A stretch of 57,412 bases of DNA, counting the filler, from Sphacelaria rigidula (taxonomy: Eukaryota): the NCBI GenBank assembly GCA_964200075.2. It is 7 parts of 7 records of this genome, joined end to end, with 100 filler letters (N's around TTAATTAATTAA, not from the genome) between each part and the next. Parts side by side here need not be neighbours in the genome. Positions count along the whole stretch, not along the records: positions 8,218 to 16,334 come from CAXNAA020012241.1; 6 more parts are not named here. One strand, written 5' to 3'. The translations under genes and the position numbers were made by a program. This document shows, piece by piece, positions 8,118 through 44,034 of the stretch. How positions within the stretch are numbered: the stretch's first letter is position 1; each line of letters starts with the position of its first letter. The notes beneath the pieces are model-generated. The model had not been told where the DNA came from and made no database searches. It was given only the letters and a program-made list of their open reading frames with translations.

Positions 8118-8217
8118 NNNNNNNNNNNNNNNNNNNNNNNNNNNNNNNNNNNNNNNNNNNNTTAATTAATTAANNNNNNNNNNNNNNNNNNNNNNNNNNN
8201 NNNNNNNNNNNNNNNNN
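8118..8217. other. Artificial contig linker (N44-TTAATTAATTAA-N44); identical linkers at 16335-16434, 24551-24650, 32767-32866, 40983-41082, 49198-49297
   Basis: Six identical 100-bp N blocks with a central TTAATTAATTAA (stops in all six frames), spaced 8215-8217 bp apart. Confidence 0.97.
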
Positions 8218-8339
8218 ACTTTTGAGCAGATGGACACCTTCCCCTTGATTAGACGATGAATACAATATGCGGATCACGGCCCAACTCGTCTGTGTCGATG
8301 AGATATTGCTTTTAGAGCTTAAATCCGTTTTGAGGCTGG

Positions 8340-9482
8340 CCCAGCTCGTAGCTCCATAGTTTGCTATGAGAGCTACGTGAGCTACGCATGGTTTCCCTGG
8401 GTAAGCTACGAGAGTTGTATAAGATACACATGTTTGCCCTTCGTGAGATTATAACCCGTAGCTCATTAGCTCATATTCTTCCTGGATGAGCTATGAGAGA
8501 TGCCTAAACGACACATGTTTGCCATAGGTGAGCCATGAGAGATACATGAGCTACACATGTGTGCCCTGGGTGAGCTACCAACCCGTAGCTCATCCGCACA
8601 TGTTTGCCCTGGATGAGCTATGAGAGCTACGTGAGCTATGAGAGCTACATGAGCTACGCATGATTGCCCTGGTTGAGCTAAAGAGTTACGAGACCTACGT
8701 CGATCTTGGAGTTGTTCCTGTTCCGATGCTCATGCACGTTGGTATTGTACGTACGTGACGACGGTTTAATGTGCGCACACGTGTGTTCCGTTTCGTGCAG
8801 CGATTGGTTTGCTTTTTGTAAGCATCAACGTGGCTGCATCAGAAGTCATCCGCATCATAACCACCACACACACACACACACACACACATAATTGCCGCTT
8901 CAGTCGAAAATGAACGAGGATTTGTGTTGACTGCTTTTTTTCCCATCGCGAATAGTAAGGCAAAACACCACAACCTAGTGGTATGTGACGCCATTCGTTC
9001 GAACAAGAATGTTACATCATGAGCGATACCGGATTGGTCAGCGGCGAGCTAGGCACATGACGTGAGTGAGCCACGAGTATGTGTCCCTGGGGCGAGCTAC
9101 CAATCTTGGCTCATCCGCTCATGTTTTTCCCTGGTGAGCTGTGAGAGCTGCGTGAGCGACACATAGCTGCCTTGGGTGAGCTATTGAGTGAGCTATGAAA
9201 TATGCATGAGCTACACATGTTTGCCCGGGATAAGCTATGAGAGCTGCAAGAGCTGCACAGGTTTGTTCTACGTGAGCTACCAACCCGTAGCTTATCAGCT
9301 CATATTCGTCCTGGGTGAGCGATGAGAGCTGCATGAGCTACACATGTTTGTCCTGGGCGAGCTGCCAATTTGTGGCTCATCAGCTCTTATTCGTCCTGGG
9401 TGAGCTATCGGACGTAGCTCACACATGTACATGTTCGACTACAAGTGAACTACGGCCCGCAGATGAGCTAGCTCATGAGCTG
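8340..9482. repeat. AGCT-rich ~42 bp tandem repeat (TGAGCTACACATGTTTGCCCTGGGTGAGCTATGAGAGCTACG), interrupted at ~8700-9040
   Basis: Units visible at 8340-8700 and 9040-9480. The intervening segment is unrelated and contains (CA)n at ~8866-8889. Confidence 0.85.
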
Positions 9483-12452
9483 TCCGACGTGTGAAATATT
9501 TTTCTACCTACATCGTGGTTTTGTAATGCTATCCCGTTCACATGGTGCGAGCGAGTTGCACACTACACGTGTCGTTGTGCGATTTATTTTAAAGTGATAG
9601 TTGTAACGGTTCATGTGCACGTGGACGCGTGCGTGTTATTTATGATGTGTTCAGGAGCCACCCCCCCAAGCCCAGACACAGTATTTCCGCAAAAGCAGCT
9701 GAAACATGTCTCGCGACGGGAGCTACGTGGAAATAGTAGCCAGCAAACAAGAATGGGATGGTCGTTATTGCCGACACATCGATAAATGTCTCGTGGACAT
9801 TCCAACACCAGTATCCGGGACTACTATAATAGTCGTCGGAAGGTACCACCTTCACCATGTAGCCGTGGTACTTGAACGGAGTCATCGGTAGACACCAAGT
9901 AGGACTGGACATGTGTTCACGAACGTTCGAAAGCATGACGTGCTTTATCGGCACGCGAAGTATGAACACGGCACATGCGATTGAAGTGATGCATGGACCC
10001 CGCCTTTGTGATGGGGGCACATCACGCACTCACAGACAAACCTTGTGTACTGTATGTTTCATTGCCAGGCACATGGCAATATGGAAGTGCGTACTACGCG
10101 TAATGGACAGTTCATCATATGGCCGGCATTTCATTCGTACCTCCCCCACGCGTCCATCTCCCTGAAGCGGTTCAACGAGGGTCCTGTGAGATGTTCATTC
10201 TTTGCCGTACGCTTCTCAGTCACTCTAGACCTAAGCCCGGCTGACCTAAGCCCGGCTGAGAGATGGTCACGCGAGAGCTTGACATACGCGTCAGATGGAT
10301 TCATTGTTACAATGCATCTCGATGTCTCATTGAGCACACTCAAAATTCACTGGATTAAACGTGCCCAGACGAGACATTGCGTTGTGTTGTTGGCGATAGA
10401 GCAGCATAGTACACAGGTTAGCACACTCAGAGAGGCATTGGCAAGCGTCTCTGCAAACGATCGTGTTTGACCCAAGTGTCCTTACGAGTGCACGCCGTCT
10501 AGTGTTCCGGGAGTATGCGTAACCCCGTTTCCCCTTCAATCAAGACCCTGGAACACCCTGTACCGGTCGTGCTGCTCGTGTGAATTTTTCGGCTTTCAAG
10601 ACACAGCTGCCCCGGACCGCATATAACCAAAATGGAGGGTCAACGGTTGTATTTTGCCTGATCGCGGGTCTGGATTTGCGAGTTTTTCACAGGAGAACCC
10701 GACCATTGACAAGCGTGCGCAGGCGCACTGCTGATGGGTTCCATGTCCGCCTTTGCACATGGCGTGCCTGGTGCACACTTGAAGGGGGCTTGAGGGGTGA
10801 TGGAACATTCGTTTGGCGAAGATGATGGAGAAGACCAGCAACATGTCACAGAAATATGGAATGGAATCAGATGTCACAGTAGCAGCAAATAAACGGTGGC
10901 CCTTTTTATCCGTTCAAGCACTTTTGTGTCACCTTGCACCAAACATCTACAGTTGACCTCGAACCACGACGACCACAGTACCCCGCGCGTTGGGTAGAAC
11001 TGAACATAGAACTTCTCCTCACTTGAAAGCACATGTGCCACACATGTGTACAATACCTGATTCCTTCAAAACGTTTGTGCCCAACTAGCGTAGCTCTCCC
11101 GTTTATGTAGCACTCATCTGCGCGGCACAGGTAGGTACGCATGTGTTCAAGGCAGGTAGAATAGTACATGCTCACTGTGGGATGTATGTCCGACATAGGC
11201 GGGATGATTCCTCACCACGCTTGAAGGTACGTCTAACAATGGTAATATTCTGGTGGTGTAGAAGACGGTTGCCCAACGTTTGGTCAGATATGGGTGCGCT
11301 TCGAAACCTTCACCCTTTCCAGGCGTCTGCTGGTTTACATCGAGGGCTGTAAAGGGAAGGATCTTTACGGTGACTATTATGGTCATGTCGGCGTCATCTA
11401 GAATGTGTACACCGATCGTGTACAGTCGTGGTATACTCATCCAACAGATGTGCAATGCACTTTACTGGAAGCCTCGATGTGTCTCCCAACAGGTTTTCGC
11501 TCCGCTCAAATTCCGGCGCTTTCCTGACATGGCACTCTGACCCTGGCGACGACAAGCATGTACTACCATGCACACCATGTACACGAGATACGAGCCGTGA
11601 AGTCCGAGAGAGAAGTGACTGAGACAAACATCAGGTTACCCAACATATGAACTCACTTATGGTTGAAGTGGAAGCCGTAGCAATACATTACTTTTGTTTC
11701 CGACGGTACCCGATAAAACAAAAGGGATGAAGACATTCATGCATAGGAGCATATGTGCACGTGAATTGAGATTCGGCAGATATGTGTGCCTATCTGCGCG
11801 TGTGCACATACCGGGTTCGGTATCAATATTGATATCGTTTGCTTTCGACGGTCGCGTGTACCGCTGGTGAGAACAAAAGTCACCCCCCTTCTATTTATAT
11901 TCCTAGCAGTGAAATAGAACAGGAACAAACCAGGCCAGTAGTTCGGAACCTAGTCAGGCATCTTTGAGTTCAGCACAATTTCCCCCTCCTTGTAGGTATA
12001 AATGATCTTCAACAATGTCAGGTATTCTGCCAGTGTAGAGCAGCTTCATAAAATATTTGGTTGGTGTTCTACAGGTCCTGAACGCTACGATACTGCATAC
12101 ATCATGCCCAGTGAATCACGACTTGTTATTATGCGTTTAGGGATTTTTGCTTATATTCGTCTCTTGTACTCTATCGATGCTGTATATATGCTTCAGATCC
12201 ATATTGCCGTATTGGTGAGGAAGTCCCATTCGCTTGGATTACTTTGGGCACTAGGGTTGTAGTCACGAAGATCAGTTCATGTAAGGAGTCATTTCAGTTA
12301 GTACGGGTAGCTCCTGTCCTCCCCGTTCATGTGCGACGATAGTGTTGTTTTCAGCGCTGTTTCTAGTGAACTGACATCAGAACCCTTCGGTGTTATGCCA
12401 ATTGTGCTACCGCGAGCAGTTACTCCTCAACAAAAACCACGCGACAGAGCTG

Positions 12453-14591
12453 ATGGCCAGCGTGGCGAGGAGAGAGTGCATACAAGAGGGCTGCCCGAAG
12501 CGACCATCGTATGGTGTACCGGGCTACAAGGCGGAGGTGTGCTCTTATCATGCCAGGGCGGGGATGGTGAATGTGGTAACCAAGAAATGCGGCGGCGAAG
12601 GTTGCTCGAAGAAGCCATCGTATGGTGTGGCGGGAAGCAAGAAGGCGGAGTTCTGCTCTCAGCATGCTAGGACGGGGATGGTGGATGTTGTGTCAAAGAA
12701 ATGCGGCAATGAGGGCTGCTCCAAAATACCATCATATGGTGTTGCGGGAGGCAAAAAGGCGGAGTTCTGCTCTCAGCATGCCAGGGCGGATATGGTGAAT
12801 GTGGTCCACCAGACGTGCGGCGATGAGGGCTGCTCCACGACGCCGTCGTATGGTGTGGCAGAAAGCAAGAAGGCGGAATTCTGCTCCAAGCATGCCAGGG
12901 CGGGGATGGTGGATGTGGTGACAAAGAAATGCGGCGACGAGGGCTGCTCCAAGAAGCCGTCGTTTGGTGTACCGGGAAGCAAGAAGGCGGAGTTCTGCTC
13001 TCAACATGCCAGGGCAGGGATGGTGGATGTGGTGCACCAGACGTGCGGCCATGAGTGCTGCTCCAGGGCGCCGTCGTATGGTGTGGCAGGAAGCAAGAAG
13101 GCAGAGTTCTGCTCCAAGCATGCCAGGGCGGGGATGGTGGATGTTGTGCACCAGACGTGCGGCAGCGAGGGCTGCTGCAAGAAGCCGTCGTATGGAGTGG
13201 CGGGAAGCAAGAAGGCGGAGTTTTGCTCTCAGCATGCCAGGGCGGGAATGGTGGATGTGGTGACAAAGAAATGCGGCGCCGAGAGCTGCCTCAAGCATCC
13301 ATCGTATGGTGTAGCAGGAAGCAAGAAGGCGGAGTTCTGCTGCAAGCATGCCAGGGCGGGAATGGTGACTGTGGTGCACAAGAAGTGTGGCCACCATGGC
13401 TGCCCTACGCGCCCATCATACGGTGTAGCGGGAATCAAGAAGGCGGAGTTCTGCTCCAAGCATGCCAGGGCTGGAATGGTGAATGTTGTGCACCAGAAGT
13501 GCGGCGGCGAGGGCTGCTCGAAGAAGCCGTCGTATGGAGTTGCGGGAAGCAAGAAGGCGGAGTTCTGCTGCAAGCATGCCAGGGCGGGAATGGTGGATGT
13601 GGTGACAAAGAAATGCGATGACGAGAGCTGCCTCAAGCATCCATCGTATGGTGTAGCAGGAAGCAAGAAGGCGGAGTTCTGTTACAAGCATGCCAGGGCG
13701 GGAATGGTCAATGTGGTGCACAAGAAGTGTGGCCACCAGGGATGCTCGAAAAAGCCATCGTATGGTGTGGCGGGAAGCAAGAAGGTGAACGTTTGCGCTC
13801 AGCATGCCAGGGCTGGAATGGTGGATGTGGTGACGAAGAAATGCGGCGACGAGGGCTGCTCGAAGAAGCCGTCGTATGATGTGACGGAAAGCAAGAAGGC
13901 GGAGTTCTGCTTGAAGCATGCCAGGGCGGGAATGGTTCATGTGGTGAGCTACAAGTGTAGCAAAGAGGGGCGCTCGATGTTGGATATTCTGAAGAACGAC
14001 AATCTTGATGAGGCAAAGTTGTGCGGGCATCCTACTGCGCATGATGTAGCTAAAGTGTACGACACGGGAGAGCTCAACACTGGGGAGGCCACCTCGACCC
14101 GTAGCATAACAGAGGGTGGTGGAGGAAGCGTTGCTGGCGTGCGAGGAACAAAACGCAAGCGCGCACCATGCCTGAGTTCTGGCACAAGCGACGTTGTTGA
14201 TGCTCGACAGAATGTGTACCCCGTTGCCAGGCGGATTGGTGTTAAACCACTGTTGCTTCCGGGCCAGCTACCCTCAGGGGCTGATCGTGAGGTGTCTCCC
14301 GTGCCAAGAGTAGGAGCAGGAATGAAGGTAGAAGTGGCAGCCCCTTCTCCTATACACGGTGGAGCTATTATGGGAGAGTGTGGCAAGCATACTGCCCACT
14401 TGGGGGGTCGGAGCAGTGCAGGTGGTCAAAGTAGCTCCAGCAGCAGCAGTTGTGGTGTGAATGCGGGACGGCTTTACGGTTCTCCGGCAGTTGTTCGTGG
14501 GTCTCTTGGCGGGTTCGTTGATGAGGAATCAGTGGAGACGTTGGAGGGTTCAAGCGTGAAGTTGGAGCTAGGAGTTGCGTCCGACAGATGA
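12453..14591 (+). CDS. EsV-1-7 repeat protein 1 (13 intact + 1 degenerate 38-aa Cys/His repeats; intronless ORF)
   Basis: 733-aa open frame, first in-frame ATG at 12453. 114-nt repeats at 12471-13949 with consensus KKCGxEGCxxxPSYGVAGSKKAEFCxxHARAGMVDVV, the EsV-1-7 domain of brown algae and phaeoviruses. Confidence 0.92.
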   Translation: MASVARRECIQEGCPKRPSYGVPGYKAEVCSYHARAGMVNVVTKKCGGEGCSKKPSYGVAGSKKAEFCSQHARTGMVDVVSKKCGNEGCSKIPSYGVAGGKKAEFCSQHARADMVNVVHQTCGDEGCSTTPSYGVAESKKAEFCSKHARAGMVDVVTKKCGDEGCSKKPSFGVPGSKKAEFCSQHARAGMVDVVHQTCGHECCSRAPSYGVAGSKKAEFCSKHARAGMVDVVHQTCGSEGCCKKPSYGVAGSKKAEFCSQHARAGMVDVVTKKCGAESCLKHPSYGVAGSKKAEFCCKHARAGMVTVVHKKCGHHGCPTRPSYGVAGIKKAEFCSKHARAGMVNVVHQKCGGEGCSKKPSYGVAGSKKAEFCCKHARAGMVDVVTKKCDDESCLKHPSYGVAGSKKAEFCYKHARAGMVNVVHKKCGHQGCSKKPSYGVAGSKKVNVCAQHARAGMVDVVTKKCGDEGCSKKPSYDVTESKKAEFCLKHARAGMVHVVSYKCSKEGRSMLDILKNDNLDEAKLCGHPTAHDVAKVYDTGELNTGEATSTRSITEGGGGSVAGVRGTKRKRAPCLSSGTSDVVDARQNVYPVARRIGVKPLLLPGQLPSGADREVSPVPRVGAGMKVEVAAPSPIHGGAIMGECGKHTAHLGGRSSAGGQSSSSSSSCGVNAGRLYGSPAVVRGSLGGFVDEESVETLEGSSVKLELGVASDR

Positions 14592-17437
14592 TGGATGATG
14601 CTGCTCGTTGTACTGATCTCGTTCAGATTACGCGGGGAGTATGCTGAACGCCAGCTTGCACAACCCGCCCCCTGAAACGGGAGGTGGCTGGTACGGATTG
14701 GTTTGCTCTCGATGCGGAGACACTCGCAAGATTGTTGGGTCCTGATATCTCAATGCTATGTTACACCAGGGTGTCGTGGACACCTAGGCTCTACAAGTGT
14801 GATGGCCATGTGCGTTGCAATAATGTGCCAAGAGTTGCCCCGAGGTTGATGCACTGTGGAAGTCGGCCACCGAATGAAGCGTGACACTGCTGTTGACGCA
14901 GAATTCATGCAGTAATCATGTCCAGCTTTCTCTAGATGATGCAGTAAGATTTTCGAGGTGCAAGTCTTGAGCACCGGGACGAAGACACGGAGACGGCGAG
15001 AGGCCTTCAACTTGCCATCCTCGTTCATTTCACACCTGCATGTTTATTCCAAACCATAGTGCACGTAGTGTCTCATACTCATGTAAGCACAATATAGGTA
15101 TGTAGTCGCCCATGTTCCAATTTCACGAAGTGCATTGGTCTCTGCTCCGGGTAGAAAATTCGACTCACCGAATTTTCGCGACTCGTTTTTTGCGATAGAT
15201 TTTTCGCGTCTCGGATTTTGCGACTCGTTTTTCGCTACATTTTTTCCAGTCTAGAACCATATTTGATTTCGGCTTTTGGATAAACCTTCGTGAAACAGAA
15301 ACTAAACGCACCTTTCTCAAAGAGGCACCTGGATACACAGCAGTTCCTGCTGCTGACGTAGTATCATGCTTCGAGTCGAAGTCTTGAGTGAGAAGTTTGA
15401 CGCCCAGCGTGCAGCTGCTTGATGCTTGACGGTGTCTCCTGTCTGCCCGAGAAACAGCCGTTGGCAATATTTCTTGGTGCCCATGTACAAAGATCACATG
15501 GTGAGTTCCGGCTGCGGATGTCTACAACGATAGTGATCGGCCGTGTGTGCTCCTCAGAGCCCCATTGCAGTTGCTGCTGCCTACCTGGTATGATGCTCCA
15601 AATCGAAGTCTTGAGTGAGAATATACATGATGTTATCGATGATAGGAATGTAAAAGGTATGAAGTGCACACGATCAGGTACGTTGCCCGCGTTTGGACAG
15701 ACAGCCGTGTTCATACAACGCGTATATCTACACGTCGTCATCATACTGAAGTGCGACAGAACACAGGGAGATGTTGCAAAGGGATATGTTGTGGACGTGG
15801 TGTGGCCAAAAGGAATATTCAACATTGAGGTAGTGGCACTTCCCAAGGGAATCTACGTGAAGCGGTACTGTTCAGTTGTGTTCAACATACAGGCAGTACA
15901 GTACAGTTCTGGCCAGTGTTTGCACAGTATGTGTTGGGCTGGTTCGTTGCCAACAAATTGCAAAGCCACATCCGCCAATATTGATGTACGGGAAAGATAA
16001 CCCGGTTCGCCGCCGCACTTGTTCGCCACTCCTTGCCTCTACCAACATGTTCTTCTCTACTCGCTGCGACGTACCCCTACCACCTACCGTTTCGGTATAC
16101 CCTGCTCAGGCGAATGCTGCCGACATGTACGTGCGGTGCAGTACAGCAACTACTTTCGCCTTCATCCATCGATCAGGGGGCACCCCTCCCACACACACAC
16201 ACTTAAAACGGGCACCCCCTGCCCCCCTCCTACAGCCCCAAAATGAGATTTCGGCGACCTGGAGAGGGACGGGTGTACTCATGATCATGCATGCCATAGT
16301 CATTAGACCACTGACCTCGCATCCCTACAAAGCCNNNNNNNNNNNNNNNNNNNNNNNNNNNNNNNNNNNNNNNNNNNNTTAATTAATTAANNNNNNNNNN
16401 NNNNNNNNNNNNNNNNNNNNNNNNNNNNNNNNNNGCTGCATCCTGCTAAAATTGTTCGGCCCGCAGCCAACTGATAATCTTGCATTTGGATGACAGCCAA
16501 TAATGACTTGCTTTACTCTGTGGTATCGCCGCTTCCAGCTTCAGGCAAGGGGGGCATCAACGGAGTAACACCATTGCTCGAGAGGGATGCATTTCCACGA
16601 CCCTCCCTAGTTCGAAGGTGTGTATTGTTTCAGTAGGTGGTGACAGGGGCGACTGATTCAGGCACAGCTGGCTATCATCATGCCGCCAGGCTAGTGCCGT
16701 ATGGTGAGTGCATTAGCATGCACAACCGTCCTGCCAGTGACCCCCGCTGCCATACCTAGCGTAGAGCAACCCTTGTGTACCCACACAGGATAAGGTGGTG
16801 TCTCCCAACAGCGTATGGCAGTACGCTGGAAACGTCATAGATCGGCGTGCGCTGCCCATCTCCACATCACCATCCACCAGGTGCAGGAACACCACTCACA
16901 TGAACCGAGTAATCATCCAGCCTGTGATCCCGATGCGAGGTGCTCAGAACAGAATGACCGCACGCCCGTTGTGTGTCACGCAAATCGGATGGGTTGAGAA
17001 ACCACACTAGCGACCTCGATACTGAAGATTTCTGTGAATCCACAGACCTCGACACCCCTTCCTTTGCTTCAGCCGTGCGGCCACGCCGTGAAAACACGTA
17101 CATGCACTACGCTGCATATTGAAAGCCCCCTCTCCCCCCCTCCGCTGTAATGACCCTGCTGCAGCGGCTCTCTCTGTCGCCTGCTAACTCCACTGCTGAT
17201 GTGTCAGTTCACTCTGGCCCACGTGCCCATATGCGACCGAGATACTATGATGAAGGCTCACCTATCTTTTTCATGGGCATGGGCTAAGGTCGCTTTTGCT
17301 GGTTAATTCATGCAGGGTGCTTCTTGACTGGTCAGCTGGACTCCGTGAAGGGGTTTGTGGTAGTGCGGATCGCGGCAGCAGGAGCACCAGCGGGACTACC
17401 ACGGCTTCGTATTTTCACTGGGGCAGTCGTGAAGGGG

Positions 17438-19543
17438 ATGCCTAGCTTTTGCACCCGCACGAGTTGAACCGCGAGAGCATCATATGGCATAGCGGGTAGC
17501 AGGAAGGCGGAGTTCTGTGCCGCACACGCCCCAGCGGGCATGGTGAATGTGCTGGGCAAGCGTGGTAGCGAGGAGGGCTGCTCCACAAGACCATCGTTCG
17601 GTGCAGCCGGTAGCAGGAAGGCGGAGTTCTGCGCCGTACACGCCCGAGCGGGCATGGTCGATTTGGTGAACAAGCGGTGCAGCGACGAGGGCTGCTCCAC
17701 AATACCATCGTTTGGTGCAGCCGGTAGCAGAGAGAGGGAGTTCTGCGCCGCACACGCCCCAGCGGGCATGGTCGATGTGACGAGCAAGCGGTGTAGCAAG
17801 GAGGGCTACTCCACGAGACCAACGTTCGGTGCAGCCGGTAGCACCAAGGCGGACTTCTGCGCCGCGCATGCCCGAGCGGGCATGGTCGATGTGAGAAACA
17901 AGCCGTGCGGCGAGGAGGGCTGCTCCATAAAACCATCGTTTGGTGCAGCCGGTAGCACGAAGGCGGAGTTCTGCGCCGCACATGCCCGAGCGGGCATGGT
18001 CGATGTGAGAAACAAGCCGTGCGGCGAGGAGGGCTGCTCCATAAAACCATTGTTCGGTGCAGCCGATAGCAGGAAGGCGGAGTTCTGCGCCGCACACGCC
18101 CGAGCGGGCATGGCCGATGTGGTGAGCAGGCGGTGCGGCAAGGAGGGCTGCTCCATAAAACCATCGTTCGGGGTAGCCGGTAGCAGGAAGGCGGAGTTCT
18201 GCGCCGCACACGCCCGAGCGGGCATGGTCGATTTGGTGAGCAGGCGGTGCAGCAAGGAGGACTGCTCCACAAGACCATCGTTCGGTGCAGCCGGTAGCAG
18301 GAAGGCGGAGTTCTGCGCCGCACACGCCCGAGCGGGCATGGTCAACGTGAGGACCAAGCGGTGCTGCAAAAAGGGCTGCTCTATATACTCATCGTTCGGT
18401 GCAGCCGGTAGCAGAAATGCGGATTTGTTTGCTAGACACTCTCGAGCAGGTGTGGTTTTCGTGAGAAACGAGAAGCACGGCAATGATGACCACTCGAACC
18501 CATCATCGGTCGGTACAGAAGCTGGCAGCAAGGTTGAGTTCTGCGCCGCACACGCCCAAGCGGGCACGGTCGGCATGGCACGAAGACGGGGTGGCAAGGA
18601 GGGCTGCTCCGCAAAACCGTGGTTGCGTTCAGCCGGTCGCAAGAAAGCGGAGTGCTGCCCCCCACACACCCGTCCAGCCATGGTGGATGTGGTACGACGG
18701 CGGTGCGGCCGAGAGGGCTGCTCCACACAACGACCACCCTGTGCAGTCGGTGGCAGGAATGCAGAGTTCTGCACCGCTCAAGCCTGCGCAGGGATGGCCT
18801 TTATCAACGGTGAGGAATGCGTCTCGCTGCATCATTCCAACCTGGTTCGGGAACACGAAAATATCTACCATCATGCTCCATATGGCTTGGTCAGAGGGTC
18901 TGATTCCACAGGACATACCCGAGAAGGGAACCCAGCGAATGATGGCTTGGTCGCGGGAGAGACTTGTGTCGGTATCGATGATGGAGGTGGAAAGTCTAGC
19001 CATCCACCTAATGGCGGTCCCAACACGACTGATGGTGGTCGTGACGCTGAGTCTCGTCCCAGCTCGTGCGTCATCCGTACAAGGCGACGGGGTGCAGATT
19101 CCACCACCACGTCGCCTTCCTCCTCGAGACAGCCCCCCGGCGCGGCGGCAGCAGATACGATTACTCTAGATGGGTCAGAGATGCGAATGAAAATAAAAAT
19201 GGAGGGGACTGTTGCGCCCGTCCGAGTTTTTGAGGGGACACGAACTAGCAAACGAGCTACTGCGCCATCCAGCGGTTGCGACAGCATGAGCGGCTCCAGC
19301 AGGACAACCAGAAGCAGTAGCATTACCAATGGAAGGAACACGAAGCGGCTTCGCCGGACGGCCCAGGTACTGCCAGTACTCGGCGTGGCAGCCGGGGATG
19401 ATTCAATCTCTGCAAACGACGGAACCGATATGAAGTTAGAACTGAACGTGTCCGCCCCGTCTTGTCACGTGTCCGCGGCCCCATCCCGCCTGCGAAAAAA
19501 GGAGGTTGTCGAGAGGACCCATGCACGCCTTGTTCCCGGCTGA
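17438..19543 (+). CDS. EsV-1-7 repeat protein 2 (12 repeats, decaying towards the C-terminus; in-frame TGA at 17465-17467)
   Basis: ATG at 17438 (MPSFCTRTS*TARASYG) is in frame with the 667-aa ORF 17540-19543. Repeats KRCxxEGCSxxPSFGAAGSRKAEFCAAHARAGMVDV span 17444-18811. Confidence 0.88.
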
Positions 19544-21498
19544 TGTTCGGCGAAGCGTTTATTCACCGTATCTGTGGTGCGCAAGTCGTGATTTCGCTCG
19601 ATTCTCCGCAATGTGAATCAGGGTTTTTGTTTCGAGGTCAAAGAGTACAGTTGTGTCCAGTGGGTAGCTGGGGAGGCGGAGGCCGCTAAGTTGTTTTTTT
19701 CGATGCATGTATGGTGGCGGATCGTCTTCAGCAATGTTTCCGAAGCATCGTAGATTTGCCAGTCGCATCTTCTCCTGGTTATTTCACTACATTTAGCACG
19801 TCACTTCGGAAAAGGTGCATTCGTCGCCATATGACATACCGCCGCGGCCCAGTGGTGCAACTGGATCGTGCAGAATCGATCAGGAGAAATGTTTTAGCCT
19901 GGAATCCTGCTGGATACCTTCCCCTCATGTATCTGAATTCCGTCTTTGAAAACGCGAGGGCATGAGAATCCGGGAATATTTGACGACAGTCGACAAGGTG
20001 GGGGAGTATTGATCTCACCGGCGGTACCTAAATGTTGGACATGCACCAGGGGAAGGATGGGTTGATCCCTCGAGACGACAAACTAGTCCCGCGGAACGGG
20101 ATGGGTTGAGAGTGGGATGAAGAGAAGCACAGTCAATGCGCTGCTCGTGCCACAATTGTTTTCCTCTCGATATACAGGATCCGATACTTGCACCTGACGC
20201 CGAGAGCGCGCAGCTGGAAAGTACATCCCCATTAGGTAGCACGAGGCGTCGAAATACTTGGCAATATTGTCTTGAGAATATCACTGCGCACAGCGCCGTA
20301 GCACGACGCACATGCGTCCTGTCGGACGATTACGCGCAGCTTATTTAAGGTTGAGGATGTGCGACATCCGTGCCCGCCCGTACGCCTCGCACCTATGGGA
20401 ATACCAAGGTTGTGAGTGTCGTGAAGTTGAGGGTCACCCGCACTAGATCCGAGCTTCGAACTGCGATATGAGAACAGCTCGAGTAAACCCCAACAAGTAG
20501 ACATGGAGTTTCGGTAGCCGCCGCAGTAGGATGAGATACTATGAGCAGGGTTGGAACAAGCCGAAGCCGAGAGTGTTTGCCACACAGAATTGTTCTCGTC
20601 ACTGATACCAAGTCGTTCGTGTTTAGTCCACTCGTGTCAAATTCAGTCGAGAATAGTATATCGTTCCCACCGCGAGAGCAATTCTTGCAAGAGGCAGACA
20701 ATCGGTGTATACCTCCGCCGCCTTCCACCATTTTGGCGCGAGATGTCGCGAAACGACCCTGGATATGACCCCTACGGAATATGCGACATTCGACTGCTTC
20801 GGCATGAAATACCTCGCTAGATGTCATGAGCAACGGGTTGTGGACAAATGATTGTTCGGAGCTCGCTATTGGGTATTATATTCGTGGAATCAAAGGGGCT
20901 TCAGAGCTATTAACTGGGGTAGCCAAGGAGCGGATTTCGTTGAGGTCCTTGAGGTAAAAAAGGCTTACACTAATCCGAAATTTAAAACGTGCCCGTCTGT
21001 CCTGTCCGTCTGGACCTCGTTACGACGCTCCGAACCACGCACTTTGTTTTTTCCCGAATCGACTCGAAGCCGCGCTGCGCGAAAACAACATCCCATCGCT
21101 CTTCTAACAGCAATCGAGACGCCCTCGACAAGTTGCAGCTTCATTGGTGCTCATGGCGTTGTGTTTCGCTTCTGTCTCTGAGCGCACTCGACAACACCGC
21201 CATTTCAACCCCTTTCGAGCGAAGCGAGTCTTGACTGAACTTCTCAGACTTGACTGTCGCAACTTCAATCGAGGCCCTTTTGGAGGTTGGAGGCATCACA
21301 TGCAGCAATAAGGATTTTGCATTGGATCGACTAACCATATAGCATGCAGGAATTCCGGTCACCACATCCGCTGGTGCATAATCACAGTACACAGGGAGCT
21401 GCCTTCCAGGTGCCCAGATTTGAATTCCTACAGAAAGAGCGTGGGTAAATCTGACGAAATATCGAATATGGATGGGTGGTCGGGTTGGTGGGGGGGGG

Positions 21499-24400
21499 CG
21501 TACTCATTTGTTGCTTGCCTTGGTCGTTCGGCCATTGACCACGCATCCCTTTCGATATGGAGCACTGTTCCTACTCCTAATAGAACCACCTTCAACATTC
21601 CGGTGCCCATCACGTTTATTCCATACATTACACAGAAACCTTTTACATATCTTATTTCCGTCCTGTCTCGCCGTTTGTGGCCACCATCTGTCTCCTAGCA
21701 TAGCCATCGTTTTCTCCCTACTGTCTGATGCATCAAACGATTTCATGCCACCTTCGTTCACGCCCCGCACTTCCCGCTCTAGCACGTCCCGTTCCTTCTA
21801 GTATAGTTCACATTTTGCCACTATATGACTTCTGCTCTCTATTACCCTGCCACAGAGGCAGTTCTGCCCATCTACTTCCTCCTCCTTTCGACTACTGGTA
21901 CATCTCTTTCTTCTTTCTGGCAGATCCAGGTCTCCCACCCGAAATCGCGAGTTCATATTTTTCGTAGCGTCCATTGGGCCATGCAAATGTGCTTTCATCC
22001 CGATCCCCTTTCTCAACCACCCGTATATCTCCACGTGTTGTTCCTCGACTACCTACCGTATGAGCGCTCCTTCTCCCCCTATTTTGATCATGTCTCTTAC
22101 TTTTGCCTTGTACCCCGCGTCTTCACCTACGGACAGTATTTCGTCTTGGTATCCTCCTATCTCCTTCCACACTTTCTCCACTTCTCCATCCCACCTTGTA
22201 GCACGCCCTTTCGTGCTTTTCTTCCATACAGCCCTACCGACTACATACAGCTGGCAATCTCCTTTTCCGCATGATCTTTACGCTATACTGTCATGGCACT
22301 TTCCCCGTGTCTCTGTTTTTAGTGAGTACATTCCCAACTCTGCTCTGAAAACCGTATTACGCGTCGTTTTCGAGCATCCAAGTATCTTCTCAGCTTCTGC
22401 CATCTGTACTGTTTCCAACCTCTCAACTAACTTCACGTTCCCCTCCCATACCTTTCCTGCATATTCTAGCTTTTGTACGATCACGTTCATCAGGATAAAT
22501 ATTTTGATCCTAGTGTCTAAGTGAGGGTCTCTGAGGATCACGTCCATCCTGTCTATCTGTGCCTTACCCTTTTTTTTTACTTTGTTCATGTGTGCATCCC
22601 AAGAACAGTGTTTTTAGATCTCCACGCCAAGGTATGCATACTGGTCTACGATCGGCAGTTCCTCTTGTTCCTCTTCTCCCCACTTCCAGTTGAACTCTGC
22701 CGGATTTGTCTTATCTTCGTTCCAGACGAGTACCGCGCATTTGTTGGCGTTCGCCGTCACTCTCCGTTTTCTAATGTGTTTTAGCGCCTTGTCTATCTGT
22801 GTCCGTGATCCTTCTGGTGTTTCTGAAATCCCCCACAAATCGTCCGCGAACATCAATCCTGATACCATCTCTTCACCCACCTTGACCCCTTGTTTTGCTG
22901 CTTCTATTGCTATTATCAAGTCATTGATGAATACCTTGAATAAAGTGGGTGATGACGTACATCCTTGTGCAACTCCTTGTAAAATATCAAAGTATTTCGA
23001 TATTTCCCCGTCTGGTGTCATGGCAATTTTGGCACATTCTGTCATTTTCACCATTCTCCACATAATTCCTCCGATCTCAGCTTTCCACAACTTTTTCCAC
23101 AAACCATTTCTCCATACTGTGTCATAAGCCTTTTGCAGATCAGAAAAGGAACAGTGCGTCGCCCGCCCGGTGTCTTCCTTACCCTGAATAATCTTACTAA
23201 GTGTGCACACATGGCCTACGCAACCACGGTTTGGTACAAATCCCGCTTGTGCCTCGCTGGCCATGTCTTCGTTTTCTAACATCGTTCGTACTCCATCGTC
23301 CAGAATCTTACAGACTGTTTTCCCTACTGTGCTCAGTAGCGTTATTCTTCTATAGTTTCCTGGGTCAGCCTTGTCTCCGTTTTTGGAACGCTTGACGACC
23401 ACTCCTTCTCTTCACCTCTTGGGTGTGTACTTGTTTCCCCAGATCCAGTTGTACAGCATGACCATCATCGTAATCATTCCCTCCCCCCCGTACTTACAAA
23501 ATTCATTCACTATTCCGTCTGCCCCTGCTGCCTTTCCGTTCTTGAGTTTTGCTATGCACTCCTTTACTTCATCTCTGGTAAACTCTCTCTGCAATTCTGT
23601 CGAGCCTTTATCCTCCCGTTTCGACGTCTCTACAGTTGCTTCTGCCCACGTGTTGATTTCTTTTTCAAATTCCTTGTCGAATTCCGTGGTTGTTTCTGGT
23701 ATTCCTCGTTTGCGGTAATGCTCGACTAGCACTCCTCTCTTTCCCTTCGAACTACTGAGAATTTTACCGTTCTGTGCCCGGAGTGTAGCTATCCCCTTAT
23801 CCATCTTTCCTGCCTGGTTCTCGTGATCCCTTTTATCCCTGCCCATATTTGTTTCATCCCGCCGTCGAAATCTTCATTTGTTTGCTCCACCACAATTTTC
23901 CATACTTCCTTTTTTTCTGCTGTACCATTTTTTTTACTGCTTTCCGAGCTTTGGTATACTCCTCCCATCCTACCGTACGTTCGCTCAATATCCAACTCGC
24001 GTGGGCCTCTTTCCTTACTCTGATAGCCTCTTTCACTTCCTCATCCCACCATTTCACTGCTCTGTTGCATACGATACGTTTCCTCCCTATGACTGTGCTC
24101 GTTGTGTCCTTGATCAGGTGCTCCTATCCTTCTACAATCTTCGCTCCTGCCCAATTTCTTTCCATTTCAGTATCAACTCTACCTACGCCTTCCAATAGCT
24201 CGGAATTTTTCACTGCATTTTTGGGCATCTCCTCTTGGAACTCTTGCAGTTTCTCTTCCATATCTAGGTTATCGATTCTCCATTTGTACATCTTCCTACC
24301 CCGCCTTTTTCTTTCAGCTCTCGCCTGTTGGATTTCTGTCCATAGTAGGCAGTGAGCTGTGGTTCCTACGTCCTCCGCGTATACATCTACTTCCATTTCT

Positions 24401-24550: not shown

Positions 24551-24650
24551 NNNNNNNNNNNNNNNNNNNNNNNNNNNNNNNNNNNNNNNNNNNNTTAATT
24601 AATTAANNNNNNNNNNNNNNNNNNNNNNNNNNNNNNNNNNNNNNNNNNNN

Positions 24651-27600
24651 GATCCCGTGTCGTGGGGTGGATTTAATGGTGTTCCTCTGAAAACTAGTTC
24701 TCAGGTGCGCTTGAATATTCGCTTTGTTGAAGGTACGCGCAAGGGTCGGAACTCGAGCACGAGTGCTTGCTTCGCAGTCTATGCGCATATCGTGCCCGAT
24801 GGTACCATGTCTTTTGACTTACTGTTGGGACGTGATGGGTTGGCTCAATTTCCTGTGCGGTCATATCGGGATGTCAGTGAATCTAGAACGATCATGTCGC
24901 TTGAGGGGGCCTCGCAATCTCCAGGTCCCACTGCGTTTGACCGTTGGGTACAAAACGCGGTGGGTATGATTGAACGAGCGTCGGGATCAGGCGAGGAGGT
25001 TGTGGTGATTTTTGCGGGTGAGTCCAATCAGGTGGTGACGCACGAGTTGACGTGGGTTCCCGTCACACTGCAGTCGCCCAGCGGGGCTCCGGCTCCGCAG
25101 GGTTCGTATTATGTGAGCTTCGAGCAGGGTTGGTCCCCCTCCGAAATGGTGGTGGATGCCGGTGAATCAGTTATTCCTTTGNNNNNNNNNNCCAGACTGG
25201 CAACTCCGGTGCTCCCTGGTGTGTTTGTGGTTGAAACGGAGGTATCTGCTCCTCCAGACGAGATGTATGGAGACTTGGGTGTGGACAAACGCGTGGCTTT
25301 TCGGCGTATGTGGGATCGCCTCCCTGGGCATTTGCGGAGTATAACTTTCGGGTTGGAGGACAAATACTGGCAGGTAGAGGATATCGACAAATTGGCGGAT
25401 GTATTGTGCAAGTTCTCGCATCGGTTTTCGGTTGACAAGATGGATTTAGGGTATTGCACGGTGGACCCGTTCAAAATTGAACTGAAACCCGGGTCTACTC
25501 CTATTAAGCAGCGCCCGTACCGTCACAATCCTGCCCTGCAGCAGAAGGTGCAAGTGGAAATTGACAGACTCTTGGCTGGTGGCTTGTTGCGGCGCTCTTA
25601 TTCCAATTGGAGCTCCCCGCTGGTGGTGGTAAACAAGAAAGATGGGGGGATTCGTTTGACGTGCAACTATCGGAAACTCAACGAAGCCACCGTCATCCCT
25701 GTTTTGCCCATCCCCACCATCGATCAACTTTTGGATGAACTGGGCGGCGCGAAAGTGTTTACGTGTTTAGATATTCTATCGGGTTATTTTAACATCTCGA
25801 TCCATCCAGACACCATCCCCCTCACCGCCGTGTGTACGCAGTCGGGTCTGTATGAATGGCTAGTTATGCCGATGGGGTGCAGCGGTAGCCCGGGTTGGTT
25901 CCAATCTATCATGGCGAGGGTGTGTGAAGGGCTGGAACGGTGCCGCCTTTATATTGACGATATCTGTACGTTCAGCGTAAATGGGGCTGAACATGTGAAC
26001 GACTTGGGCGCTTTTCTGGAACGACTGACAAAATTTAATTTGAAACTGGCGCCAAAGAAAGCGCACGTGGGGGCGCGTGAGACGCAATTCTTGGGTCATC
26101 GCATCTCGGCCGACGGCATCGCGCCCGACCCTAAGAAAGTGGACGCGCTGCGATTAATGCCTATGCCGACCAATGTCAGTGAGCTGCGTTCGCTCTTGGG
26201 GGGGTTAAGTTATTATCGGAAGTTTATTCCCAAGATGGCCGCCCGTACCAAAGCCATTAATGGATTGTTGAAAAAAGGGGTGGAGTTCAGGTTCACGCCA
26301 GAGCACGAGGTTATCGTTCGCGAAATTCTGGACGATTTGTGTAGCTCTAGGGTTCTGGCTTTTCCAGACTATGAGGATGCGGCGTCTGGTGGCCGTCCTT
26401 TTATGTTGGTTACGGATGCCAGCAAGGAGGGGCTGGGGGCTGTGGTGGAACAGCGCCAACTCGACGGTACGGTGCGACCTTTATGCTTTTTCAGGCGGAG
26501 CACGTTGCCAAACGAACGAAACTGGACGGCCACTGAGGTGGAAGCGGATGCGATCGTGTGGGCGGTGAAGAAAAATCGTCCGCTGTTTTATGGGGTGCCG
26601 GAAGATGTTAGTGGGCAATTCAAAATCACCGACTCTGCCGATGTAGATGTATACTTTATTGGGGCAAGTGGTATCCTGCCTCGTGACTTCGAACGGCACC
26701 ATGGTTCTGGTTTGGATGGGCTCCCCGGTGGGTCAGGCGCGCCCCAGGGTTCCAGTGTGGATGGGCTTCCTCCTCATGGTGTAGTTCGAGTGGGGGGGAG
26801 AGAACACTGGGATATGCCGTGGACACTTTCAGAAGTAGCGGACGACGAGTGGGATCAAATTCAAAATAATCTCAGGAAAAAACGGTTGATGACAGTCTGG
26901 AAGGGTCCAGAAGTGGTAAGCGATGACTCGCGACTTCTCCCGAGCGTGACGAATGTGGTGTGTGGGCAGTGGCAACCGGGATTGTGCTTACATGCTTGCC
27001 CGGTTACTGAAGTGGGAAAATATGTGCTACACAAGACGGCGGGTCCGGACGTTTTGGTAATCACGGATGGTGAGGCTGGGCCAGCAGAAGAGGACGGTTC
27101 GGGTACTCCCGCGCACACTTTAGAGGCGGCGGAGGAATGTAATTTTGGTGAGTGGTTGTGCGCCAAGTCAGCGGGTGACTGGGTGCACATCCAAGAGACT
27201 GATCTGACCGCTCGTACGACTACTATGCACCTCTCACAGGGGACAATGTTACTTTCGAAGGAAGAAGAAAAGTCCGTGGATAGTGGTATCGATGTGAAAG
27301 AACTGAGGGCTTTGCTGAAACAAGGAGAACTCTTTGAGCTAGCGGACGGTAGCAAATTGTTGGTGAAAAGGTTGGCTCCTGCGCCTTTGGATTCAGATGA
27401 CCGTAACCCGGGGGTATTTGAGCGATACCTGGGGGACGAACCTGTGCGAACGTATGTCCCGTTGATGCTGAGGCTCTGGGTAATGGACCAGACGCACAAA
27501 GAGGCGGTGCACCTTGGTGAAAAAGTTACCCTCTCTTTGTTGCGAAGGTTTTACTGGTGGATCGGTATGAAGGAGAGTGTGAAATTCTGGATTCGGCGCT

Positions 27601-29112
27601 GCTATTCTTGCCAAGCCAAGAAATCGGGTCGTTATACGGTGCCTTGGCCTCTACTCTCGCTACCACTACCCAGTCGGCCGGGGCAAATGGTAGCGTTTGA
27701 TTTTCTAGGCCCGTTGCCGAAAACAAAGCGGGGCAATAGACACATCTTCCTCATGGTGGATCTGTTTAGTAGGCACGCGGAAGCGTACGCGATTACCGCT
27801 GAAGAGCACTTGGCTACGGGGTGTGCTGCAATCATTGTGGGAGATTATGTACCACGATGGGGTTGCCCGCACACATTCTTGTCGGATCGGGGATCGGAGT
27901 TCACTTCCGCTGTGTGTAAATCGGTCTATGAAATGATGGGGGCGGTAAAGCGGTTCACGAGTTCGTATCACCCTCAGACGAATGGGATGGTGGAGCGGTT
28001 GATCCACACTTTGTGTCAAATGCTGTCTTATTTGGTGGTGGACGATCAGAGCAACTGGGATGAAACCCTGATGCATGCGGTTTCAGCTCATAACAGTAAC
28101 ATCAGCAGGGGTACTGGGTTGTCTCCAAACGAGGTACATATTGGACGCTACCCGCGCATGCCCATGACCATCCTAGAAGGTAGGGGGTGCGGGGGCACCA
28201 AGGTTTGAAGGACGACCAGTTGGACCATCTCCAGCTGATGAGAGACCGGCAGGTAAAAGCGTACGAGTTGGTGAGGCAAGAGGACTTTTTCATTAAAGCG
28301 AAACATGAAGCCAAGAACCAGGATATGGAGGAAATGGCCAACCGCCGGCCCAAATGGGAAGCGGGGCAGTGGGTGTTTGTGTACGATGATAAGAGCACCA
28401 TCGCCGCGGGAGGTAAGGCCGTGCAGGTGACGGCGACTTCAGCCCGGACGTCTATGGCTCTGTCAGCGAAGGTGACTCAGTGTTGGACGGGGCCTTCCAA
28501 AATTTTATTGGTGGGACCGGGGACAAGCTCGGAGGGTGAACAGGTGGGGGAAAAGTAGTTGTTGCTGGAGCTTCGCCGAAACGAACCAGGGGTCAACATG
28601 AACCCCAGGGTGTCGGTGGCAAGGTGTCAGCGGTGCTATAACCCTCATGAAGGGCCGGACAAGCCGAGATTTTTGCCTTGGGGTTTGAGTCAGTATGTGC
28701 TGAATAAATATTCCAAACTGTCACCTCCTCTGCATTCAACAACGGAGGATGTGACGAGGGAGTTGGATACGCATCGAATACTCCCTGAAAAACTGGTAAA
28801 ACACAGGGTGTCGCGGGGTGTGGGTGGTAAGTTGGTGGTGCAATACCTCACGCGTTGGGGTGGCTTGGATGTTCCTCGGTGGGAGCATGAAGCCGACCTT
28901 GAGCAGTACGGTCGGGTGGTAATTCTGAAACATTGGTTAGGGCAACCAATGCAGGTGCAAGGTGACAACGCGCAGCATCGTAAATACCGCATCCATTTGT
29001 CGAGGCATATAACGGCGCATGAGCGTGGTGGGTATTACCTTGCGCCAGGGTATAAAGTGTCGGGGCGCCGAAAAGATGGGCCGGACGTGTATGATCCTGA
29101 CATTGTTGGTTC
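24651..29112 (+). mobile_element. Ty3/Gypsy LTR retrotransposon pol (protease-RT-RNaseH-integrase-chromodomain), defective
   Basis: DLLLGRD, WSSP, NYRKLN, MPMG, YIDD, FLGH, TDAS, H..VH...CYSC, FDFLGP, SDRGSEF, YHPQTNGMVER, then chromo-like VQYLTRWGG...WE. Frameshift near 28190 and a stop at 28556-28558. Confidence 0.96.
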
Positions 29113-32045: not shown

Positions 32046-32171
32046 TCCGACAGACCTCGAACTAGGCACGGTGGCGAATGATCGTGCTCTGTACACCCTG
32101 ATCAACGCATCCAGTTTGATCGCCAGCAAGGAGACCCTTTGGGAGAACAGGTGCAATCGAATCTGAGGGGG

Positions 32172-32766
32172 GGCGTACTCACTTGTTGCTTGCCTTGGTC
32201 GTTTGACCATTGACCACGCATCCCTTTCGAGACGGAGCACCGCTCCTACTCGTCATAGATACACGTTCAACATTCCGGAGCGCATTACGCTTCTACCATA
32301 GCTCATTACGTTTATCCCATACTCTGCGCAAAACCATTTTACGTAGCTAATACATCAGACGATTCCATGCCTCCTTCGTTCACGTCCCGTATTTCTCCCT
32401 CTAGCACGTGTTGCTCCTTCTTGTACAGTTCAGTTCACATTGCGCCACTTTATGACTTCTGCTCTCGGCTGCTTTGCCACAGAGGTAATTTGTCCATCAA
32501 CTTCCTCTTTCCGATTACTGGTATACTTTTTTTTTTACTGTTCCCCCTTTTCTCAGAGCGTGTTTCAGTTTTGTTTCTCGTGGGTACGTCTATCATGAGA
32601 CCACGGCTGGACCCCTGGGGGGTCAGTTGAAGTGCGGCAATCAACCAATCAATCAATCAATCTTTCCGGCAGGTCCGTGCATCCAAATATCTGTTTTCTA
32701 GCTTGCGTCACCAATTTCACGTCCCACGTCCATACGTCTCCTGCATATTCCAGCTGAGGTACGATC
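32172..32766 (-). mobile_element. Second fragment of the same LINE 3' region, interrupted by a (CAAT)n-tailed element at ~32520-32662
   Basis: 32172-32520 matches ~21499-21900, and 32680-32766 matches ~22380-22480. Confidence 0.85.

Positions 32767-43983: not shown

Positions 43984-44034
<51 letters not shown>

Follow-up and report, generated by a model that had tools for sequence, protein, structure and literature searches.

An intact 13-unit EsV-1-7 gene of the brown alga Sphacelaria rigidula and the possible ligand of its putative metal-module array

What does a long tandem array of EsV-1-7 repeats bind, and does each of its units read one step of a nucleic acid? The question is raised by a gene of the brown alga Sphacelaria rigidula, which was studied in a window (the whole stretch of DNA analysed) of 57,412 nucleotides (nt) composed of 7 parts of the assembly GCA_964200075.2, with 100 filler letters between parts. 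The gene occupies positions 12453-14591 in the part 8,218-16,334 (CAXNAA020012241.1); adjoining parts need not be genomic neighbours. EsV-1-7 is the largest orthogroup of brown-algal genomes and includes the developmental regulator IMM (bioRxiv 10.64898/2026.04.27.720984; 10.1101/2024.02.19.579948), and its brown-algal genes are clustered in tandem arrays (bioRxiv 10.1101/2024.02.19.579948). In this literature the ligand and the molecular function of the family are still called unknown. An earlier note, made from the DNA alone, had proposed a programmable array in the manner of TAL effectors or zinc fingers, in which each unit is a zinc module reading one nucleic-acid step and a variable triplet determines specificity. 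The locus was found to be an intact nuclear gene of a brown alga and a member of the expanded, tandemly clustered EsV-1-7 family. That it encodes a nuclear, basic rod of 13 metal modules binding DNA, where metal, location and binding are what we infer, is the reading we favour over its rivals, although in our judgement it is an evenly balanced proposition. Evidence for a simple code of one unit for one base was not obtained, and any sequence preference remains presumptive.

Tandem Repeats Finder reported one array (12486-13946; period 114 nt, 12.8 copies, 80% matches, score 1683), and the array protein was matched by Pfam family PF19114 (EsV_1_7_cys) in 13 stretches with an E-value of 3e-202 (654.5 bits against a cut-off of 25). 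An array of this kind is far beyond chance. Two further Pfam families were listed for the protein, neither with a stretch that passed by itself. The 13 units described in the earlier note were thereby recovered, but with units cut at the first cysteine (column 1 in the numbering used throughout) both ends of the span it had given, 12471-13949, lie about 6 nt too early relative to 12477-13955. The first unit comprises 37 amino acids (aa) with the spacing C-x4-C-x15-C-x2-H, and units 2-13 comprise 38 aa with C-x4-C-x16-C-x2-H. All 52 ligand residues of the 13 units (Cys1, Cys6, Cys23 and His26) are intact, and the ligand columns are without any change inside the array. The residues P10, S11, V14, K19, H26, A27, R28, M31, V32, V34 and V35 were present in 13 of 13 units, Y12, G13, A20, E21, A29 and G30 in 12 and F22 in 11, in line with the near-invariant PSYG, AEF and HARAGMV scaffold that had been noticed before. 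Every unit contains C-x2-H-x4-M (columns 23-31), and a conserved joint, V-[DN]-V-V-x-K-K, connects the units.

The triplets following the second cysteine read, from unit 1 to unit 13, PKR, SKK, SKI, STT, SKK, SRA, CKK, LKH, PTR, SKK, LKH, SKK and SKK, and the inter-repeat linkers are TKK/SKK/HQT/HKK/HQK with SYK as the last one; triplets and linkers agree with the earlier listing. Column entropies were highest at columns 3 (2.57 bits), 9 (2.20), 24 (1.70), 33 (1.57) and 7 (1.55), followed by 36 (1.46), 25 (1.30) and 37 (1.24), which makes eight columns above 1.2 bits. Variation is thus concentrated by the ligands (3, 7, 9, 24, 25) and at the joint (33, 36, 37), as had been stated and as would be expected of a TALE- or zinc-finger-style array whose specificity resides in the triplet along with column 3, the C-xx-H pair and the linker. 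It is not confined to the triplet, however, and the middle position of the triplet, column 8, is K in 10 of 13 units, so that the triplet is effectively S/x-K-x. Five of the 13 triplets are SKK, which also speaks against such a code. The array is strongly basic, as had been claimed (isoelectric point 9.29; 82 K+R versus 39 D+E in 493 aa), and K/R was found at columns 8, 18, 19, 28, 37 and 38 in 11, 12, 13, 13, 8 and 10 of 13 units, respectively.

The history of the units bears on the same question. Nucleotide identity between units ranges from 71 to 94%, with mean identity peaking at a lag of three units (0.84). Identity reaches 93% for units 7/10 and 94% for units 8/11, and all aa differences within these two pairs fall in columns 2, 3, 7, 24, 25 and 33. 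The pairs reflect the recent duplication of a block with an offset of three units, and because units 7-11 hold this duplication the LKH triplet occurs twice in the array. Divergence was calculated by Nei-Gojobori counts for all 78 unit pairs. The synonymous divergence (dS) was 0.557 array-wide, and the ratio of non-synonymous to synonymous divergence (dN/dS) was 0.29 overall, falling to 0.15 for the 30 less variable columns and to 0.15-0.20 for the scaffold. The eight most variable columns gave 0.69, a circular value since these columns were picked post hoc. For a variable class chosen independently of this array, namely the 14 highest-entropy columns in 581 unique repeats of other proteins, dN/dS was 0.40, or 0.59 when set against array-wide dS. 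As a second measure, changes from the unit consensus were compared with the pooled silent rate by Fisher test, in a star-shaped count that treats shared changes as independent; the variable class reached 0.64 of the silent rate, significantly less than 1 (p 0.002), compared with 0.21 for the other non-ligand columns, and aa changes were absent from the ligand columns. The excess of non-synonymous change at variable sites that the earlier note had predicted was therefore not seen. In favour of a code, columns 3, 9 and 36 change at 1.5-2.2 times array-wide dS, and three or four columns are unconstrained; within their own codons, however, columns 3, 9 and 36 are about neutral (ratio of non-synonymous to synonymous proportions, pN/pS, 0.67, 0.93 and 1.07, respectively). 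Since silent divergence between units is high, it is purifying selection that maintains the scaffold, and recent copying does not account for its conservation. The units are old, their scaffold is under purifying selection and a few positions are nearly free, while diversifying selection is not indicated; comparisons of paralogous units at dS 0.56 have little power for selection tests.

A search of 1.84 billion proteins with a profile of 18 window units yielded 4681 representative clusters at E <= 0.001, of which 2321 reached E <= 1e-10. Family statistics were derived from 230 collected proteins (the window protein, P0001, and 229 others). In relatives a spacing of 38 aa was by far the commonest (354 counts versus 29 for the next value). 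Across 1097 unique canonical repeats, conservation was found at the four ligands, M31 (935), G30 (786), P10, G16, V32 and the aromatics at columns 12 and 22, and columns 8, 18, 19, 28, 37 and 38 were basic in 32-69% of the repeats. About 14 of 38 columns vary freely family-wide, a point against the code, and the columns that vary in the Sphacelaria array are a subset of these (Spearman 0.46, p 0.003). In 1068 repeats of 190 proteins, 481 kinds of triplet were counted, TKQ, TKR, SKQ and SKR being the commonest, and the same repeats held 977 distinct five-column combinations. Two triplets from one protein were identical ten times more commonly than two from different proteins (0.059 versus 0.0056), a pattern of sharing that points to descent by internal duplication and not to choice from a small reusable code. 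The proposal that each unit reads a single step by means of its triplet is not supported, in view of the number of triplet kinds, the five SKK triplets and the 71-94% identity of the units, and we consider a programmable code of this type very unlikely.

For paralogs of other species, rates per site were obtained at protein level, from proteins alone. The ligand columns showed no differences in 8 of 10 protein pairs, and in six independent pairs of close relatives (76-86% identical) the ligands never change. In those six pairs the scaffold changed at 0.04-0.40 per site (the value of 0.40 stems from a pair that has only one canonical repeat), the variable class at 0.14-0.43 (0.04-0.43 across protein pairs) and non-repeat parts at 0.17-0.25. 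By this comparison the variable columns appear about as free as low-complexity tails, with neither strong conservation nor acceleration.

The window gene is an EsV-1-7 member by every feature compared, and the family, its expansion and its tandem clustering have already been published. With EsV-1 gene 7, IMM and the rest of the family (PF19114, IPR043822) its protein shares the repeat pattern, the 38-aa period and the lack of any other Pfam domain; it differs by its 13 units and by a 211-aa tail that was found in 14 of the 229 others. By the tests run, which left the IMM N-terminal domain out, it is not an ortholog of IMM. Pfam family Zf_WRKY19 (PF24906) matched 16 of 79 family members, among them P0021, P0047, P0116 and P0124, but not the window protein (best E 9.8e-09, some scores above the 27-bit cut-off). 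In three relatives the matches covered the first 12-16 positions, so about half of the 24-position model was spanned, and PF24906 and PF19114 probably overlap. As a separate observation, the stretch flanking Met31 aligned with the copper-site loop of plastocyanin (PDB matches, E 0.4-1.3), and Pfam Copper-bind matched 2 of 79 relatives (best E 5.6e-4); this likeness may reflect chance or a packing residue.

Downstream of the array, the protein continues into a non-repeat C-terminal tail, which begins with a broken 14th unit. In BLASTP searches with the tail, 14 of the 229 other collected proteins were matched, mostly proteins of Sphacelaria rigidula, among them P0003 (72.5%) and P0004 (66.5%). 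Proteins of Sphacelaria rigidula are likewise the nearest named relatives of the gene product as a whole. The tail defines a subfamily of 15 members. Paralogs in which both head and tail match contain 7 units (P0003) and at least 5 units (P0004), compared with 13 here, so that unit number changes freely. Such a difference in repeat number between paralogs is also what a programmable array would be expected to display. Within the tail, a four-residue basic run, KRKR or a near variant of it, is kept in 13 of 14 tail relatives and two hydrophobic-K-x-E motifs are kept in 14 of 14 and 12 of 14. The KRKR run looks like a nuclear localisation signal (NLS), the classical consensus for which is K-K/R-x-K/R, and the two K-x-E motifs look like consensus sites for the small ubiquitin-like modifier (SUMO).

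Structure models were built with AlphaFold2 from 115 aligned relatives. For the 517-residue array the predicted local distance difference test (pLDDT) was 79.2 and the predicted template modelling score (pTM) 0.50, with 256 of 517 residues at pLDDT >= 90; for three units the values were 84.3 and 0.54. In both models DSSP assigned strands to columns 12-14 and 31-33 and a bridge to column 22, with almost no helix. The models thus contain short strands and no helical repeat, unlike TAL units, an observation that concerns secondary structure and not the overall shape, for which a superhelix had been expected. The claim that each unit is a zinc module fits the invariant ligands and the well-predicted residues, with zinc as the presumed metal. 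Foldseek against solved structures returned 52 rows for the whole array and 32 rows for three units, none at E <= 0.001; rows for LIM, PHD-C5HCH, PZP and B-box were found at E 1-10, and no match fell below E 0.9. VIA-align of three units against 48,161 chains gave a best Z of 3.2 (43 residues), with 38-44 residues aligned and model residues 1-45 only, the best rows being the RING domains of IDOL, BIRC7 and MEX-3C (Z 2.9-3.2). A second structure alignment against 32 chains gave no Z >= 2. Searches for solved relatives by sequence gave chance matches only (RecA concatemers without a passing stretch, plastocyanin at E 0.4-1.3 and one match at E 1.1), and the ESM Atlas, searched with three units and with PF19114 left out, gave no usable match. 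A solved structure resembling the predicted fold was thus not found in these searches. Every weak fold row belongs to a zinc module (RING, B-box, LIM, PHD, nsp13 zinc domain or GATA), which is compatible with a metal-knuckle module without assigning its fold.

Since most of these weak structural neighbours bind proteins, the array might instead be a scaffold like LIM, RING, B-box, PHD or MYM modules that assembles nuclear complexes, with its charge being incidental. The two conserved hydrophobic-K-x-E motifs of the tail would suit this reading, as would the description of Ectocarpus EsV-1-7 members without any other Pfam domain, which is common for adaptors (bioRxiv 10.64898/2026.04.27.720984). 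However, none of the fold matches is significant (Z <= 3.2, Foldseek E > 0.9), six conserved basic columns per unit suit a polyanionic ligand better, and the partners in the recurrent fusions of the family, described below, are enzymes that act on DNA rather than signalling or ubiquitin domains. A protein-binding scaffold is therefore regarded as unlikely, though it deserves consideration.

Three known DNA-binding systems were compared with the array. TAL repeats are helical and metal-free, with near-identical DNA and two differing residues drawn from a small alphabet. The EsV-1-7 array shares with them a fixed unit length (34 versus 38 aa), variation in few columns and a repeat number that differs between paralogs, but it consists of predicted beta-type Cys3His modules with 71-94% nt identity, at least 8 variable columns and 481 kinds of triplet in the family. 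With C2H2 arrays it has in common tandem metal modules, a conserved linker, duplication and divergence, purifying selection on the scaffold and lineage-specific gene clusters. The C2H2 pattern C-x2-4-C-x12-H-x3-5-H is, however, absent from the protein, zf-C2H2 was not matched in Pfam at E <= 1, the array model has neither a recognition helix nor any helix after the second ligand pair, and the variable sites lack an excess of aa change (0.64 of the silent rate, p 0.002). The closest likeness in ligand spacing was found in the SBP domain, whose first zinc site is given as CX4CX16CX2H (bioRxiv 10.1101/2021.08.22.457055). This ligand set and spacing are identical to those of 12 of 13 units, and both are basic and mainly beta. 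Weak matches to Pfam SBP (PF03110) were obtained for 9 of 79 relatives, with a best E of 0.018. SBP is a single domain, whereas the window protein is a tandem array, and the pattern of the second SBP site, CX2CX3HX11C, is absent from the window protein.

Indirect support for nucleic acid as the ligand was found at family level. In 76 of the 230 collected relatives, an array of 1-14 repeats precedes a conserved C-terminal domain that contains the motif RPD..E.DE.QH..RFNPD. Giant-virus loci (n=12) were reached via the metagenomic relative P0090, and in these the domain has about 135 residues and 51 invariant columns. By ESM features it lies nearest to PvuRts1I-like restriction-endonuclease and DUF559 clusters (0.84), which serves as a lead only. 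When the three-unit model was searched against BFVD, 29 structures matched at E <= 0.001, of which depositors named four "Endonuclease" and one "DNA primase"; EsV-1-7 itself was among the matches (E 3.8e-13, 48% identity). These giant-virus proteins share with the window protein the repeat, a similar array length (1-14 units) and the predicted module fold, but the C-terminal domain is theirs, while the window protein has an NLS-like tail instead. A transposase of Ectocarpus carrying an EsV-1-7 domain has also been published, and this remark alone was found when the literature was searched for EsV-1-7 together with nuclease, DNA binding or zinc finger. When the 51 representatives whose non-repeat parts are longest were compared with Pfam at E <= 1e-5, the matches beside PF19114 were few and minor (a partial methyltransferase in P0195; DUF2769, CoV_NSP13_ZBD, DNApolII_insertion and Zf_WRKY19 on five others), and no informative enzyme partner was among them.

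Two of the virus loci, L006 and L007 (genes at 1501-2580 and 1501-2808), have near-identical C-terminal domains, with 3 aa differences in 154, dN 0.015 and dS 0.34, while their arrays are dissimilar (49-88% of residues differ; dS 1.3-1.6). The array has thus been exchanged as a cassette next to a kept C-terminal domain. Such a swap is as expected of a targeting module and hence counts in favour of a code; among close virus pairs, however, the variable class had a dN/dS of 0.09-1.40 on 1-8 changes, which does not argue for one. The ligand columns were without differences in 9 of 10 virus gene pairs, the most divergent pair, L001/L002, having one in 24 ligand codons.

Nucleic-acid binding is plausible from this comparison, and basic charge and modular layout would speak equally for DNA and for RNA. 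That the array binds RNA and works on transcripts, as PUF, PPR or CCCH fingers do, is nevertheless quite improbable in our view: the enzyme partners (proteins named endonuclease, primase or transposase) act on DNA, the array swap beside a putative nuclease fits the choice of a DNA target, and no RNA-binding family was present in the Pfam tallies of relatives. Taken together, the fusions, the structural look-alikes, the array swap, the transposase and the SBP spacing point to DNA more than to protein, without amounting to proof.

Several observations weigh against DNA binding by a nuclear metal-module rod. Pfam matches of relevance to the virus C-terminal domain were absent at E <= 10, its PDB sequence profile gave chance matches only and PF04480 did not match it in one searched record, so that the term nuclease reflects the ESM lead and the names given by depositors. 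The window protein lacks the RPD..E.DE.QH..RFNPD domain and is not among the 76 relatives, and hints based on fusions may not carry over to algal proteins. Most of the zinc modules to which the models show weak fold matches bind proteins (RING and B-box in VIA-align; LIM, PHD and B-box in Foldseek). PF03110 was not listed for the window protein at E <= 10, and solved SBP structures were absent from the Foldseek and VIA-align rows, an absence that does not exclude the fold. The NLS and SUMO assignments are consensus matches only. In the literature searched, data on binding, metal or localisation of any EsV-1-7 member were not found.

If the protein is such a DNA-binding rod, it may work as follows. 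Each 38-aa unit would fold round one metal ion, probably zinc, through Cys1, Cys6, Cys23 and His26, as a small and predominantly beta-stranded module. Owing to the exact spacing of 38 aa and to the V-[DN]-V-V-x-K-K joint, the 13 modules would be strung into a long, positively charged rod, which the KRKR run of the tail probably directs to the nucleus. There, the basic surface would bind DNA, with K/R at columns 8, 18, 19, 28, 37 and 38 providing affinity, and the loosely constrained columns 3, 7, 9, 24, 25 and 36 would at most tune preference. An extension of this mechanism, which we regard as doubtful, is that nature has, in EsV-1-7 arrays, one more class of modular DNA binders that read sequence, which giant viruses use to aim homing-type endonucleases, which transposons borrow and which brown algae have adopted as a large family of nuclear regulators (including IMM and the gene described here); columns 3, 7, 9, 24, 25 and 36 of each module would then contribute a short, separable part of the target. 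As an object the gene is ordinary and brings nothing new in kind, but it offers a clean case of 13 units maintained by purifying selection. The family-level evidence recasts "function unknown" as a direct bench question about metal, DNA binding and motif, and if binding is modular, the family would be of interest to brown-algal developmental biology and to protein engineering.

Table 1. Coordinates of the array gene, its parts and other features of the window, with the evidence for each
Feature	Position	Strand	Evidence
Open frame	12390-14591	+	ORF (open reading frame) list
EsV-1-7 array protein, coding sequence, 712 aa from first ATG	12453-14591	+	ATG 12453, stop 14589-14591
13 tandem EsV-1-7 units, cut at Cys1	12477-13955	+	Tandem Repeats Finder, Pfam PF19114, unit table, column entropies
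Units 7-11 with block duplication, lag of three units	13158-13727	+	Pairwise nt identity
Broken 14th unit, Cys1 kept, Cys2 replaced	13956-14015	+	Translation; also kept in paralogs P0003 and P0004
Non-repeat C-terminal tail, 211 aa	13956-14588	+	BLASTP
GTKRKRAP basic run, NLS-like	14145-14168	+	Four-residue basic run kept in 13 of 14 tail relatives
MKVE, hydrophobic-K-x-E	14322-14333	+	psi-K-V/M/A-E kept in 14 of 14 tail relatives
VKLE, second hydrophobic-K-x-E, near C-terminus	14556-14567	+	[VLM]KL[ED] or VKID in 12 of 14 tail relatives
Second EsV-1-7 gene, 667-aa ORF	17540-19543	+	Pfam PF19114, E 8.4e-122, 9 stretches
Reverse-transcriptase fragment	22614-23402	-	Pfam
Ty3/gypsy-type pol frame (reverse transcriptase, RNase H, integrase)	24657-28208	+	Pfam

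A second EsV-1-7 gene is found about 3 kb downstream on the same strand (Table 1). It lies past the part end at 16,334, and its distance, like that of the pol frame, runs along the joined stretch and across part joins. Of its 10 units in register, 5 have all four ligands and 5 have lost a ligand. The scaffold changes at 0.9-1.15 of the silent rate and the variable class at 1.9-2.1 (p 0.045-0.088, borderline, and from the star-shaped count in which shared changes are taken as independent). Because its scaffold changes at about the silent rate and five units have lost a ligand, the gene reads as being under relaxed constraint. The rate pattern could be either decay or a trace of diversification; the raised rate of the variable class is a point for a specificity code, but it accompanies a neutral scaffold and lost ligands and in this resembles decay.

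The same neighbour raises the possibility that the 13-unit gene is itself a decaying or selfish copy, either the remnant of a virus insertion or a young duplicate heading for loss. The family is thought to be virus-derived (bioRxiv 10.64898/2026.04.27.720984), and retrotransposon pol genes are present elsewhere in the joined window. The 712-codon frame is intact, however, with 52 of 52 ligand residues, strong purifying selection holds the scaffold to a rate of change that is 0.21 times the silent one although the units diverged long ago (dS 0.56), and 14 paralogs keep the tail. Five further large ORFs tested in the window had no Pfam match and hence no Pfam virus hallmark, and the region, being without marks of a virus insertion, resembles ordinary repeat-rich nuclear DNA of a brown alga. 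In addition, contigs of four public runs match the unique tail and the downstream flank without difference (13918-14107, 14268-14450 and 14581-14877), and identical sequence is thus present in other data sets; three of the four runs are only guessed to be RNA, and most contigs fit several places owing to the repeat family. Contigs of the guessed-RNA runs are nearly absent upstream of 12370 and past about 15000, where run X1 continues, a distribution that is unusable as evidence. A decaying copy is most unlikely on these grounds.

Among the remaining features of the window, a direct repeat of 137 nt with 86% identity was found at 21489-21625 and 32164-32300, on either side of the pol frame and in separate window parts. 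It may represent the long terminal repeat remains of the pol element. Pairs of 44-nt N runs occur at 8118-8217, 16335-16434, 24551-24650, 32767-32866, 40983-41082 and 49198-49297, at a spacing of about 8216 nt, and an additional 10-nt N run was found at 25182-25191; the regularity of the N runs looks like a masking or assembly artefact and not like biology. Finally, a (CAA)n microsatellite of about 17 units is located at about 43980-44030, whose minus-strand translation is a cysteine run that produces a false motif match.

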